A stretch of 64,000 nucleotides of DNA from Centroscyllium fabricii (Eukaryota): NCBI GenBank assembly GCA_051313645.2, contig JBNRSN020000014.1, positions 78,988,001-79,052,000 on the forward strand, written 5' to 3'. A program made the translations under genes and the position numbers. Positions 3,053 to 41,372 of this stretch are shown one piece after another. Positions within the stretch are counted from its first letter, which is position 1, and each line of letters begins with the position of its first letter. The notes under the pieces were generated by a model. The model saw only the letters and a list, made by a program, of their open reading frames with translations. It made no database searches and was not told where the DNA came from.

Positions 3053-3216
3053 CAATGTTCCCTGCAGCTGCCCTTTGTTTCGTGCAGCCTGTTCCTTTTA
3101 ATGCGCGGTCCCTTTAAATTTCCGTGCATGCGCGGTATTTACAATGGAGAAGCCGGTAAGCAGCCTACACGGGACCTTTTCCATTACTGCGACCGCAAAG
3201 CTTAGAGGGAACATTT
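3053..3216. mobile_element. hAT-type MITE
   Basis: TIRs CAATGTTCCCT/AGGGAACATT and an 8-bp TSD gttgtaac/gttgtaat. Same TIR as 48787-48931. Confidence 0.75.
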
Positions 3217-3448
3217 GTTGTAATGCAGTTCCTCCTTTGATAGCCCCAACGCCAAACAGCTTTTATTAGGAACAATCAATTAAGTGTGTAACCTATTCTT
3301 AAAGAAAGAGCTGGTATTTATATAGCGACTTTTATGACCTCAGGATGTCCCAAAGCATTTTACAGCTAATGAGGTATAGTCACTGTTGTAATATAACTTA
3401 CTCACTGCAACAGCTTCTGACATAAACCACATTTTTTGTTTTAAATAG

Positions 3449-3613
3449 GTGACGGTGCTTCTCTCTCTCCGACAAAGTTGAATGGTAGTGACAGCTCTAA
3501 GAGTCTCCCATCTCCCTCATCCAGTCCTCAACGCAACTGGATTCCCTCTCCTACCCACGATCCACAGTGGTATCCAAATGATTCTGGTGACTCCTCGTTG
3601 GGTAGTCTGTTGT
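3449..3613 (+). CDS. CRAMP1: CRAMP1 coding exon
   Basis: ttttaaatAG acceptor and T|GTAAGT donor, phase-compatible with neighbours. Translates GDGASLSPTKLNGSDSSKSLPSPSSSPQRNWIPSPTHDPQWYPNDSGDSSLGSLL. Confidence 0.93.
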
Positions 3614-3828
3614 GTAAGTAGCTTGTAGTTTATTGTCTTCCAAAAGCTGCATTTCACCTCATTACAATTTGCACTCCCTAAGCACACAAACATATCCTGC
3701 AAGGTCTCGGTCCCATTTCAAATATCTAGATTCATCATGAGGTAGTGACTTGTTTCTCAGTTCCCATTCAATTTCTCCCAACTCCGACAGGCAGTGAAAG
3801 ATTCAAAGTCTCCATAAGCAAACACATT

Positions 3829-4647
3829 GGCCTTGATTTTCACTGAGTCGTGGAGTCGGGATTGAAGGCGTGCGGGGGGTTAAAATCCCGAATTCGGGTG
3901 TCCTGACCCATCCCACACCCAAATCCGCCTCCGTGCCAGTTTCAAAGGAGGCGGGCACCCGCACTGGGAACGGCCTACCCAAGGCGGGATGGGATTAGTG
4001 CCAATTAACTGCCTGTTAACAGGTAGTTTTTAGCCTAATCCCTATTTTAAACGTTGAACTGAGAGTTTCCCGATGGCTCCAAACCACGCCAAATTAGAGT
4101 CGTCGGGCCATCGGGTTGAAGGACTTGGAGGGGGTCGAGCTGTCAGTGTTCAGGTGAGTGATGTGTGCAGGAGTGCAAATGTAAGTGTGTTTGGTGTGTC
4201 TAAAGTGATTAAATAAGTTTAACATACCTTTTCTTACCTTCTCACCCTTCCTTCCTTTAGGCTTTGGGAGTGCCTCATCCAACCAGCACAGAAAGCAGAA
4301 TGGCTGTGATCTGTCAGAAGTGACAGCCTGCAGCTTTCTGTGCTGGTAAGATTTCTAACTGAGTCTGTGTAGAAGGATTCAGGTTAGAAGTAAGACTGTG
4401 TCAGTGTTTGACAGCTTCAAACAGCTGTGAAACGCTGATATTTCATCTGTCAAAACGTCTTGACAGAGGAAATTTCAGTCTGTGACATCACCTGTTTCCG
4501 GGTGGCCCTTAATTGGCCTGCTGAGCCCGCTGGGTGGACTCAACAAGGTCAATCAAGTGAAAATTGCGTGGATTGGCCGCATCTTGATGGAGGCGGGACT
4601 ACAAGCCCGAAAGTTGTAGTCCCGACTCCGGAGTTAAAATCACCCCC
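3829..4647. mobile_element. Harbinger-like non-autonomous DNA element
   Basis: GG..GATTTT/AAAATC..CC termini with ATT on both flanks, and an internal hairpin at 4283-4346. Confidence 0.6.
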
Positions 4648-5046
4648 ATTGTGTAGATTTGGTATCTTAGCATCTATACTGAACTCTGTTTAATATCACA
4701 ATGTCCTTGATGACGTGTTTTTTCCTTTTCTCGTGTGATGGTTTTGTATTGCATAAATGCGCAACAGGTCTTGCCAGCCGGCCTCTTCTGTTTGTCATTT
4801 CAGCCTTTATTGCATGAGTGAAGTTATTTTTTTTAATGTTGTGCTGTTGTTCATCAGTGTGGAGTACAGTAATAATAATCCCACCACTGGCTGGTCACAA
4901 AGTGGCATTGTTAAAGGCCTCAGGGCAGCACTCCTTCATGAGCTCTGAGTTGGCAACTGATGCATGGTACAAGTAACCAGAGAGAAGAGAAAAGAAACAT
5001 GAAATGTGACTAAACTAACATGTAATTGGAGAAAGGGGGAGACATT

Positions 5047-5759
5047 GGGCGCGAAATTTGTGAGCGCACGAATTGGGGCGCTAAAATTGGTGCGGCGCTA
5101 AAATTACCGCCACCGCTAAATACGCGCCCAGTATTCACTTTAGCGCCGGCATTGCAGATTTCGGCGCTAAATCAGGTGTTGCACGAGATCCAGCCAGCCA
5201 ATATTTTGGCGCTAATTGCCGATCGCGGGCACAGCGCTCCTTCAGCAACTCCTTGCTTTCCCATAAACTCTGGAGCCGGAAAGGTCTTAAAGGGGTAGGG
5301 GGAACATTGCATGATGTGTCGGCACCCCTCCCTCATAATCTCCCCGATCTCTCCGGACCCCCTCATCATCTCCCCGATCTCGCCCCGCCCGACCCCCCTC
5401 AGCATCTGACCGATCTTGGGCCGAAGAGGCTACCGAGGAAATGGAGGGTCGCCCTTTTAGCAGCGCTGCAGCGGCCACTCAGACCCTCAGCATCGCTTGC
5501 CAAAGCTGGCACTGGCAGCGCTGCGCCTGGGGGACTGGCGCAAAGGCGAATTTCGGGCGTAGCCCGGCGGGCGGTTGTTGCACCTAGATATGCACGACGA
5601 TTGCCGATCGCAAATTAGCATGCGCTAACAGTTAGCGCTGGCGCTAATCACTGGGTGAATTTAGCGCCCGGTGCTAAAATGTCTGTGCCCGGCACTAAAA
5701 CCTGTAGCGCCCATTTTTCGGCGCTAAACCGACGACGCTAAGGCGGCAATTTCGCGCCC
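5047..5759. mobile_element. GC-rich Harbinger-like MITE (GGCGCTAA-rich)
   Basis: TIR GGGCGCGAAATT/AATTTCGCGCCC, flanks ATT/ATA. A second copy lies inverted at 21929-22999. Confidence 0.75.
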
Positions 5760-6007
5760 ATAGTAAATTAATCCTGCAGGGTGTGCTGGGAATTTTGGTA
5801 TAATCTAGGTTTTGTTTGCCATAACTCTCTATTCCCAAATCAGATATTATATATACCACATTCTTCATCCAGTAATAAACTTAGTTTGTTGATTAGTAAT
5901 GTTGAGGATGGACATGAGCCAAAGTTATGTGACACCATAAGCATTACTTCTAGGTAAAATAATAATCCTCAGGATTTTTATATTACTTGTAAAATTGTAA
6001 GAAAGCA

Positions 6008-6390
6008 AAACTTGTATTTATCTTGTGTATCACAAAAATGTCCCAGAGCAATTCACATAATGAATTACTTTGAAGTGCAGCAGCTATTATGTAGGAAAAC
6101 CTGGCACTCATTTTGTGCAAGGCAACATTCCAAAAACAACACTGAGGTGAAACCAGGTAATCTGTTTTTGAAATAACAACAGAAAACACTGGAGAAACTC
6201 TGCAGGCCAGGCAGCATCGGGAGAGAGAGAAACAGAGTTAACGTTTCAGGTCGATGATCTGTTTTTGATGTTAGTTAAGAGTGAAATGTTGGCAAGGATT
6301 CTGGAAGAACTCCCTACTTTCCTTCACCTAGTGTAATGGGATGTTTAATGCCCATCTGAGCAAGCACACAGGACCTCAATTTAATGTCTC
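6008..6390 (-). mobile_element. Ancient SINE (DeuSINE/SacSINE-like body with L2-type tail), interrupted by the PLE fragment 6172-6256
   Basis: Degenerate match to the recalled Deu-domain SINE body. Related pieces occur at 3308-3395 (tail) and 7165-7325 (tRNA head). Confidence 0.5.
6172..6256 (-). mobile_element. Penelope-like (family B) terminal fragment with partial hammerhead motif
   Basis: The reverse complement reads TCATCGACCTGAAACGTTAACTCTG. Perfect 12-bp TSD atctgtttttga (6160-6171 / 6257-6268). Confidence 0.7.
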
Positions 6391-37246: not shown

Positions 37247-37487
37247 CTACAATAGCAGAAGGAAAATATCAGTCAGGTTAGATTAGATATTAAAAAAAGT
37301 GAGAACTTTGCTCACATTGAAAATATTTAACCCATCACTTACAAGAAATCACAACTAGCAAGCAGAACATTAAACCAAGATGGCATGGCAGCAGATTATT
37401 GTAGCACTAACACACAGTACAAATGTGGGGGCACAGCCTCCACCTGGCACTCCCCTGCTCAAGTAAGTTCCAACCTCATTTTCATTG

Positions 37488-37645
37488 TTTTATTTGAAAT
37501 CACAAGCTTTCGGTGCGCTGCTCCTTCGTTAGGTGAAGTGACTCCGAAAGCTTGTGATTTCAAATAAAACTGTTGGACTATAACCTGGTGTTGTGTGACG
37601 TCTTACATGTGTCCACCCCAGTCCATCACCAGCACCTCCACATCA
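37488..37645 (+). mobile_element. Penelope-like (family A) fold-back insertion
   Basis: Inverted arms ttttatttgaaatcacaagctttcgg / ccgaaagcttgtgatttcaaataaaa. Perfect 12-bp TSD tcattttcattg (37476-37487 / 37646-37657). Confidence 0.75.
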
Positions 37646-37974
37646 TCATTTTCATTGGGATAGGAGTGGGAAAGTAAATAGCTAAAGTTTTACACTAGTG
37701 TTGCTTACCTGCCAACAGGTATAACGATTTCATGCCCTGAACATTCTTTTTTCCCCCAAAGTGATGAAAACCAAATCAGATAACACAATTCTATTGGTAT
37801 TACCAAACCAAACCATTCTGGGATGAAGAAATCCTAACTAGTGTGATGTGTGCTGCATTTGCGTCATTATCTTTCAGTATTTCTATTGAGGTCGCAAAGC
37901 TACAAGAAACGAGACATTCAATTTTTAGTACCCAAGATTTAAGGTTAGGTAGTAGCAGGATGCACCAGAAGGAA

Positions 37975-39349: not shown

Positions 39350-39717
39350 CTAGACGCAGAGCAGGAACACAGTTAAACCAGTGGTGCAGTGCATCGGGAA
39401 TACTGACAGTGCCACAGAGTGAATAGTCCCCCCAACCCCACAGTTCCTAATCCCAGCTACATTGTTCTAAACACTGGTCAGAATAGTCTCTATGAAATAC
39501 AATTAAGAACAGACTATTAAGTGGGGGGAAAAACTCCACAGCAACGTCAGCAGCACATTATTCACTATGCATATCAATATAGCACAAATTTTAAATATTT
39601 GTACCCGATGATTACGGTTTTAAATTAACATAGCACAAACGGCATACATGACGAGGAAACTTTGTAAAATCATTTAAATCCCATTCCTAAAGGTTGACCA
39701 CAACTCACTCATGAGTT

Positions 39718-40085
39718 ATAATGTGGAGGTGCCGGTGTTGGACTGGGGTGGACAAATGCAAGAAGTCACACAACACCAGATTATAGTCCAGCGGTTTTAT
39801 TTTAAATCACAAGTTTTCGGAGCGCTGCTCCTTCCTCAGGTGGACAGAGAGACTGACTTAAAGATCACACATATCGGAGGAAGGGAGAAATCCGATCTCT
39901 CCCACATCTCTGTCTCTGCTAGGGTGAGATGTGGAAGAGATCGGATTTCTCCCTTCCTCCGGTATGTGTGATCTTTAAGTCAGTCTCTCTGTCCACCTGA
40001 GGAAGGAGCAGCGCTCCGAAAGCTTGTGATTTAAAATAAAACCCTTGGACTATAATCTGGTGTTGTGTGACTTCTTGCATTTGTC
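39718..40085. mobile_element. Penelope-like (family A) fold-back element, about 163-bp inverted arms
   Basis: Arms 39748-39910 / 39926-40088 with a 15-nt spacer. Flanking direct repeat cactcatgagtt (39706-39717 / 40086-40097). Confidence 0.8.
39994..40028 (+). ncRNA. Minimal type I hammerhead ribozyme motif (PLE-type)
   Basis: CAC-CUGAGGA-A-GGAGC(AGC)GCUCC-GAA-AGCU-U-GUG. The core, helix II, palindromic helix III and a 3-bp helix I are intact. Confidence 0.7.
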
Positions 40086-40604
40086 CACTCATGAGTTGTC
40101 ATTTCTTAGTTATCAAGGCATCACTTGGGGGAGGGATAGAAGTCATATTTACTGCTCAAGTGTCACACATAGCCTGGCATCCCTCAATCATGACTGGAAT
40201 CAGGGCACGCTTCCTTTTCAGTAAACTGCACAGAGTTCATGCATCATTAAAACTGCATGTTACATGAACAAAACATTCTCCCCATTTCTGCTGAAGATGA
40301 CAATTTATTTTGGGATGCAGTTTCACGTGTGCCAGCAGCTCCCCCTAATATGGTGCCCAAGCGGTTATTCTTAAAGTGTAACTAATGGCTAATGGACCGT
40401 GGTGAAGCCACAGCTGGCCCCACTCTTGCCTCAACTGGCACACATGTACTTTCCAGCAGGTGCCACTAAACAGCTGTTTACACCATTTCTCTTGGGTTTC
40501 TGCTGAAGTCATGGCGGGCGATCAGTGAATGTCCGCAGGAATTCCACCCCTTTAAATTTTGGCGGGGGGGGGGGGGGGGGTTGGGGGAGAAATACATGTA
40601 TATA

Positions 40605-41338
40605 CAGGTTGAGCACAGTTAATCCGGACACCGTTTGTCCGGCAATTTCAAACGTCCGGCATGAATCTGGCCGACTGGTGTGCGCATGCGCAAAATGGCC
40701 GCCCCGCTTGGCTGCGCATGCCCAGGCCTCTGCCCGACTGCCCTACTGGTCTGCGCATGCGCAAAATGGCCACCATGCGTGGCTGCGCATGCCCAGGCCA
40801 AAGATGTGCAGGTTAGGTTGATTGGCCATGGTAAATTGACCCTTAGTGTTAGGGGGATTGAATATGTGGGGTTACAGGGATAGGGTGGGATATGTGTCGG
40901 TGCAGGCTCGATAGGGATCGAAGGATATGGGGACAAGGCAGGGACAGGGTACTGGGTTTGGATGATCAGCCATGATCTCATTAAATGGCGGAGCGGGCTC
41001 GAAGGGCCGAGTGGCCTACTCCTGCTTCTATCTTCTATGTTCTATGTAGGCCTCTGCCCGACTGCCCTGCGCATGCGAAAAATGGCCGCCGCGCATGCCC
41101 AGGCCTCCCCGACTGGTCTGCGCATGTGCAATATGGCCGCCGCGCTTGGCTGCGCATGCCCGGGCCTCTCCCCAAACGATTGATGCTTCGGCGAGCGCAT
41201 GCACAGACCATTCAAAATTTTGCGGCGGCCATTTTGAATGGTCTGCGCATGCGCTTGCCAAACTTCAATCATTCGGCGTTTTCTATAATTCGGCACAGTC
41301 CTGGTCCCGACCACACCGGATTAACAATGCTCAACCTG
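40605..41338. mobile_element. Tigger/pogo-like MITE with internal GCGCATGCGC-rich repeats and a 5'-truncated HE1 inserted (about 40800-41047)
   Basis: TA|CAGGTTGAGCA..TTAATCCGG / CCGGATTAA..TGCTCAACCTG|TA. The HE1 is flanked by AGGCC repeats. Confidence 0.82.
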
Positions 41339-41372
41339 TATTTTCCATTTTTGATCCAAGTAATCACCGTAC

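Follow-up and report, generated by a model that had tools for sequence, protein, structure and literature searches.

A head-to-head double copy of a Penelope-like element end in WDR24 intron 3 of Centroscyllium fabricii, with a proposed origin by twin priming

How does a near-perfect fold-back that bears a hammerhead ribozyme motif on each strand come to lie in an intron of WDR24? The locus is part of a 64,000-nt stretch of the Centroscyllium fabricii genome (contig JBNRSN020000014.1), which we call the window. A sequence-only reading had placed it in WDR24 intron 3, a location borne out by exon mapping and by PDB matches (E = 1e-97 and 1e-120) that identify the host gene as WDR24, on the minus strand. 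The insertion ends ~370 nt ahead of the exon 4 acceptor. With moderate confidence, we read it as a 5′-truncated, head-to-head double copy of the end of a Neptune-type Penelope-like element (PLE), which would have arisen by priming from both nicked target strands and whose hammerheads would be inert. The features that bear on this reading are as follows.

39350..41372, minus strand: host intron, WDR24 intron 3 (the third intron by exon mapping)
39706..39717, no strand: target-site duplication, left copy, 12 nt, CACTCATGAGTT
39718..39747, minus strand: Penelope "tail", 30 nt, which in tandem full-length copies continues into the open frame's ATG
39748..39910, minus strand: left arm, lying on the WDR24 sense strand and formed by the element's pLTR / 3′ UTR end
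39808..39842, minus strand: minimal hammerhead, left copy, its helix III palindrome broken (AACU) by a change at 39814
39907..39910, no strand: microhomology TCTC, 4 nt, at the head-to-head junction, assignable to either arm
39911..39925, plus strand: unpaired spacer, made of element sequence that continues into the right arm
39926..40088, plus strand: right arm, a second copy of the pLTR end, ending 30-33 nt short of the tail end
39994..40028, plus strand: minimal type I hammerhead, right copy, predicted cut 40025/40026
40086..40097, no strand: target-site duplication, right copy, CACTCATGAGTT, its first 3 nt (CAC) overlapping the arm end

The arms are 163 nt each and 97% complementary, with 15 nt between them, and the mismatched pairs number five (39791/40045, 39792/40044, 39814/40022, 39874/39962 and 39901/39935). 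The fold energy of the fold-back is -334.3 kcal/mol (z = -37.6), and 0 of 100 shuffles folded equally well. The coordinates and the mismatch map confirm the two arms of about 163 bp, the 15-nt spacer and the flanking direct repeat that had been described from the sequence. Absent from that description was the tail, which separates the left repeat from the left arm and has no pairing partner; once its 30 nt are counted, the insertion measures 371 nt and is asymmetric. The TCTC overlap at the junction was taken from comparison with full-length copies, as the automated score of 7 nt was inflated by fold-backs in the comparison set.

How old is the insertion? The left arm and tail differ from the pLTR of locus L140 by 3 changes in 193 nt, the right arm has 2 private changes in 182 nt relative to loci L140, L135 and L086, and each arm diverges from full-length copies by 1-2%. 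The element had been called young, which holds only in relative terms: the 3.1% difference between its arms is the median of our sample (97.0% identity), and some copies have identical arms. Judging from these divergences, the insertion is recent within the Penelope family but outside the youngest copies.

The arms are almost certainly the pLTR of an autonomous Penelope-like family that encodes reverse transcriptase (RT) and GIY-YIG domains, because the window sequence bounds RT + GIY-YIG frames in the same genome. We reached the parent frame by walking upstream from relatives in the 7.2-Gb genome. An intact, uninterrupted frame of 890 amino acids lies between two copies of the window sequence in 4 of the 20 longer loci fetched. 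Of 30 loci retrieved with the 5′ part of the frame, 10 have the tail joined directly to ATG GCT ACT. At locus L086, a 719-amino-acid open stretch is followed, after ~350 nt, by sequence 97.4% identical to the window arm. The window sequence both precedes and follows the frame, forming a partial tandem with a unit of ~3.2 kb. A Penelope-like origin, an inverted pLTR and a target duplication had all been proposed, along with an autonomous RT + GIY-YIG partner. The arms do match the pLTRs of full-length elements, the inverted pLTR and the duplication are present in the window, and the partner is the 890-amino-acid frame.

The frame matches RVT_1 (E = 6e-10) and, when Pfam was run on the last 113 amino acids only, GIY-YIG (E = 1.7e-4; score 22.3 bits, cut-off 22.6); whole and partial frames gave no GIY-YIG match. 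Its motifs are DKG, RT, a CX2-5CxxC linker (CHSNLCKTC at 752) and, at the C terminus, GIY-YIG. Two cysteines lie between the GIY-YIG motifs, and VYLIRCRKGCPGAWYIG at 790 is a putative CCHH motif. Sharks (80-89%) and turtles (43-45%) supply the nearest proteins. A single frame, DKG, RT, the linker and the C-terminal GIY-YIG are shared with the Neptune and Nematis PLEs as described in PMC8557442. Assigned by the linker and CCHH motifs, the clade would be Neptune (or Nematis). Between the two we presume Neptune, the group to which we take vertebrate linker-bearing PLEs to belong. Other copies of the family take unusual forms. Locus L099 contains a 3,192-nt palindrome (3139-6330; 98.9% identity), each arm of which includes the 3′ half of the reading frame. 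In a shark "epn2 isoform" record (protein P0027), the RT of this same element is fused to epsin domains, a fusion that is probably an annotation absorbing an intronic Penelope copy.

Is the hairpin itself copied as a unit, or is it produced where it inserts? To sample the family we started from the first 100 exact hammerhead matches on one contig and used 96 of them, which gave 85 loci after removal of partners; with one contig and selection for an exact hammerhead, two-armed loci and one haplotype are over-represented, and one reference fails to fit all subfamilies upstream of the hammerhead. Fold-backs make up 44 of the 85 loci, with spans of 131-1449 nt (within 1.5 kb; one 2.9-kb fold-back was counted as two solo loci). 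Their arms (20-424 nt) and spacers (0-1135 nt) vary continuously, one complex locus being omitted from these ranges. The 33-mer across the window junction occurs once in the 7.2-Gb genome at ≤1 mismatch. With no second copy of this centre in the genome, we conclude that the hairpin did not spread as a unit, and comparison of the copies makes it very probable that the fold-back was made on site. The non-autonomous retroelement of the sequence-only reading gives way here: with a unique centre, and centres that differ between copies, the locus is a dead-on-arrival, truncated copy of the autonomous family. Duplications of ≥10 nt flank 34 of the 44 sampled fold-backs, compared with 2 of 220 shuffled pairs, with scored lengths of 10-18 nt. 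They are 67% AT, against 55% in the flanks, and no (TA)n targeting was seen among them.

The ends of the arms are more informative about how a fold-back could form. Arm 3′ ends fall into two classes, at the ATG (0 to -4) and at about -36. One tail end is combined with one short end in 40 of the 44 fold-backs, where ~22 would be expected if the ends were independent (p = 8e-9), and in 12 of 15 in a second sample. Among 43 fold-backs analysed for the owner of the spacer, 19 have it on the tail-less arm and 11 on the tailed arm, with 13 unassigned. Neither arm contains the other in 19 of the 30 assignable fold-backs. The window copy is likewise non-nested; neither of its arms is a plain copy of the other, because the left has the tail and the right has the spacer. 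Palindromic centres that have no loop also exist, such as the GGCC of locus L219. Junction overlap was unscorable in 15 of the 44 fold-backs and unexplained by ≥10 nt in 12, and many have no overlap or small gaps. Under both 3′ end classes lies a CATT motif (counting from the ATG, pLTR -40 to -36 and -5 to 0).

In LINE-1 twin priming, two nicks in the target prime two cDNAs, which are joined head to head through microhomology. The second LINE-1 primer starts internally, which yields an inversion without duplication. In the scheme that we propose for the window, both cDNAs would instead start near the 3′ end, giving an inverted duplication. The GIY-YIG nuclease of the element would make a staggered cut ~12 nt wide; one strand would prime at the tail end (ATG) and the other ~30-40 nt upstream; the cDNAs would stop after ~190 and ~180 nt; and their 3′ ends would anneal via TCTC/GAGA, followed by fill-in. 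Five substitutions have occurred since insertion, one of which broke the left palindrome.

The pairing of tail and short ends, the non-nested arms, the TCTC overlap and in vitro data from a Poseidon element together suggest twin priming from both nicked target strands, an origin toward which we lean slightly. The Poseidon PAc protein, from Anolis, nicks and extends both strands in vitro and initiates at a pair of sites bounding the tail (PMC11167929), which the two 3′ end classes here bound as well. The elements differ in layout: the PAc hammerhead overlaps the start codon and its tail lies ~110 nt into the frame (PMC11167929), whereas here the hammerhead starts 124 nt ahead of the ATG, at which the tail ends. 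Several points weigh against twin priming. The mechanism is deduced from end products, with no intermediate seen; the arms of one insertion usually share their subfamily, and even private variants, as self-priming would likewise predict; and the supporting in vitro data come from a Poseidon element, not a Neptune one.

Self-priming is the alternative that survives best. One cDNA or antisense RNA could have snapped back on itself, after which the nuclease would have trimmed an end so that just one arm kept a tail. PMC3846280 proposes self-priming on an antisense template, and PMC8557442 derives the tail from EN-mediated resolution. Snap-back is feasible here, as TCTC could pair with GAGA around a 15-nt loop, and it would account for the variants that arms usually share. 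Trimming would fit the position of both 3′ end classes on CATT, since the Poseidon nuclease prefers ATT (PMC11167929). However, an extra trimming step is required for 19 of 30 loci and for the window, where the loop-bearing arm has no tail; folding back does not easily produce centres with 0-2 unpaired bases; and self-priming cannot yield arms of different haplotype at insertion. We consider it unlikely, though deserving of real weight.

Do such discordant arms occur? The hammerheads of paired arms are identical in 32 of 80 pairs, and most of the others differ by isolated changes. Different recurrent hammerhead haplotypes are found on the two arms in 4 of 34 fold-backs and in a further 1 of 10 (5 of the 44 with both readable). 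These could reflect two RNA templates or short gene conversions, both of which would give discordant haplotypes, and discordant arms often agree in the sequence flanking the hammerhead on either side. At L003, L018, L172, L181, L185, L193 and L256, the arms differ in haplotype (position 7, helix II, loop length) and the flanks agree. The same hammerhead haplotypes recur across subfamilies that have different upstream UTRs. Over 10 copies, median identity was 0.974 within copies and 0.856 between copies; in 3 of the 10, the window included, a closer arm lies elsewhere.

Extending twin priming beyond this locus, we tentatively propose, at somewhat short of even confidence, that PLEs routinely twin-prime. 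A protein dimer would nick both strands, cDNAs would start at the tail end and 30-40 nt upstream, sometimes from two RNAs, and the products would be joined head to head. Our literature search, which covered few subscription journals, found no published twin-priming proposal for PLEs.

It is also conceivable that the 370-nt hairpin moves as a unit, as a non-autonomous mini-retroelement (retrozyme or SINE-like) served in trans by the family enzyme. A search with the whole element returned similar-sized fold-backs with their own duplications for 40 of 40 scored candidates, and loci L152 and L183 have one centre in common. However, that search selects for size, the window centre is unique, and arms and spacers vary widely, up to the 3.2-kb palindrome with half the frame at L099. 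The window sequence does have much in common with the non-LTR retrozymes described in bioRxiv 10.64898/2026.07.22.740005, being non-coding, hammerhead-bearing and derived from PLE pLTRs. Those elements are thought to propagate as tandem direct repeats, whereas the window holds one inverted pair with a unique centre and no tandem monomers. We regard movement as a unit as very improbable.

What, then, of the ribozymes? The right hammerhead comprises a CAC/GUG helix I, the CUGAGGA core, an extra A, a 5-bp helix II, GAAA, the AGCU palindrome and a CUU triplet. This agrees with the minimal type I hammerhead with palindromic helix III that had been recognized from the sequence, including its cut at 40025/40026. 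The AACU reported for the left arm is also correct, and the change costs that copy 2 of 4 homodimer helix III pairs. The ribozyme call rests on the minimal-hammerhead pattern because Rfam gives no hammerhead family among 28 matches at E ≤ 10, which include only hairpin-type matches below gathering scores. The CUGANGA and GAAA boxes, the extra base before helix II, the palindromic 15.2-16.2 of the right copy and the short helix I are shared with the metazoan PLE hammerheads of PMC4209133.

Calling the ribozyme intact was an overstatement, considering its CUU triplet, its 3-bp helix I and its fate within the full hairpin. In predicted folds of the right motif alone, helix II forms with a probability of ~0.8 and helix I with ~0.45; inside the full hairpin, the probability of helix II is ~1e-18 on either strand. 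A dimeric hammerhead was not the best fold when two 35-mers were cofolded, the left-arm input being 2 nt off register. CUU is ranked last among cleavage triplets for efficiency in PMC8879150, minimal PLE hammerheads are reported to cleave poorly even as dimers (PMC4209133), and the hammerhead of Poseidon PAc is dispensable for insertion (PMC11167929). In any transcript that spans both arms, a 163-bp duplex is predicted to form and to lock both hammerheads as inert passengers. The long dsRNA hairpin in WDR24 pre-mRNA that the sequence-only reading put forward is likewise a prediction of the fold. The inner end of the shorter arm clusters close upstream of the hammerhead, with 15 of 43 falling at -145 to -115 (L151-L240), a cluster that may mark an RNA start or a polymerase stop. 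At the hammerhead cut site, inner ends number 0 of 43; this, and the extension of both arms through the cut site, is in line with an uncut RNA template.

Hammerheads of this kind are extremely abundant in the genome. The exact 35-nt sequence has 21,053 matches (control 0), and leaving helix II free gives 90,051 + 67,303 matches for two loop lengths (controls 0 and 1), or at least 157,354 intact minimal cores. The counts in PMC4209133, which were obtained by different methods, are ~4,000 in coelacanth and ~9,000 in Xenopus. In the first 100 of 43,761 free-core matches, N7 is G in 41, C in 31, T in 24 and A in 4, and the other 10 free core places hold 15 changes in total (counted by eye). Conservation of the core across copies, which had been named as a check, is thus seen in these 100, where only position 7 is polymorphic. 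U occupies position 17 in 199 of the 200 matches listed. In recurrent variants, pairing is maintained through one-sided changes (A-U to G-U in helix II, and loop swaps), and no two-sided helix covariation was seen among those examined. The conservation of the core fits selection on the ribozyme in source elements, rather than on the window copy. We estimate that stubs with both arms reduced to the pLTR number in the tens of thousands in the genome.

Could the insertion have been co-opted for WDR24 regulation, through pre-mRNA cleavage or as an edited or diced hairpin? It is intronic, lies ~370 nt from the acceptor and has a very stable predicted duplex (-322 kcal/mol on the WDR24 strand). Contigs from runs of two other organisms, which we guess to be RNA, extend over exon 4, some of the right flank and Penelope-family sequence; none of those listed joins across the insertion site. 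Against co-option, the sense-strand ribozyme has no palindrome and is sequestered, CUU is the weakest triplet according to PMC8879150, the arms have decayed to the level typical of the sample, and such hairpins are very common in the genome. Cleavage of WDR24 pre-mRNA by the hammerhead is unlikely, and co-option as a whole is highly improbable.

A MITE or other fold-back DNA transposon, or an assembly artefact, could present long inverted repeats with a flanking direct repeat, but merits next to no credence: the ends are asymmetric, the centre and the duplication length vary and the sequence is continuous with an RT + EN frame, while a read chimera is opposed by five private arm differences with a clean duplication, and an artefact by contigs of two public runs, possibly from the same individual, that enter the element from both flanks by 23-26 nt, short of the 31 nt required for bridging.

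The layout, the tail, the minimal hammerhead and the opposed hammerhead pairs are all already in print. Inverted-pLTR insertions of EN-bearing PLEs have been described for Adineta Pen2a_Av (PMC3846280) and as a general scheme (PMC8557442). The window copy shares with these a head-to-head inverted copy, a 30-40 nt tail on one arm only, an inverted copy shorter by about the length of the tail, a duplication of ~9-12 nt and a palindrome at the junction; it differs in that both arms are cut to the pLTR, with no coding sequence. Opposite-strand hammerhead pairs 100-700 bp apart are attributed to truncated PLEs in PMC4209133. The origin of PLE inverted repeats and tails is stated to be unsettled in PMC8557442.

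The WDR24-intron locus itself is ordinary, one among very many stubs, and its value lies in the family-wide pattern. The pairing of tail and short ends, the non-nested arms and the mixed haplotypes provide sharp predictions for an existing in vitro system (PMC11167929). If PLEs do twin-prime routinely, one rule would account for tail and inverted pLTR alike, as well as for the shuffling of hammerhead haplotypes among subfamilies, and a genome with >157,000 hammerhead cores would be a very large natural record of twin priming. Since the hammerhead count is >10 times the vertebrate counts in the two papers compared, long intronic dsRNA derived from stubs may also supply editing or silencing in sharks with a large class of substrate.

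Two neighboring features deserve mention. A second, smaller fold-back of the same Penelope family lies at 37476..37657 (plus strand) with its own 12-nt duplication, TCATTTTCATTG; its turn-back point is within the hammerhead, and the short arm ends sooner than usual, near -79. In the same intron as the main insertion, an element at 40602-41341 has 26-nt terminal inverted repeats, a 32-nt internal hairpin and 65-nt internal repeats. This element, which we take to be a MITE from its appearance, ends ~30 nt from the WDR24 exon 3 donor.
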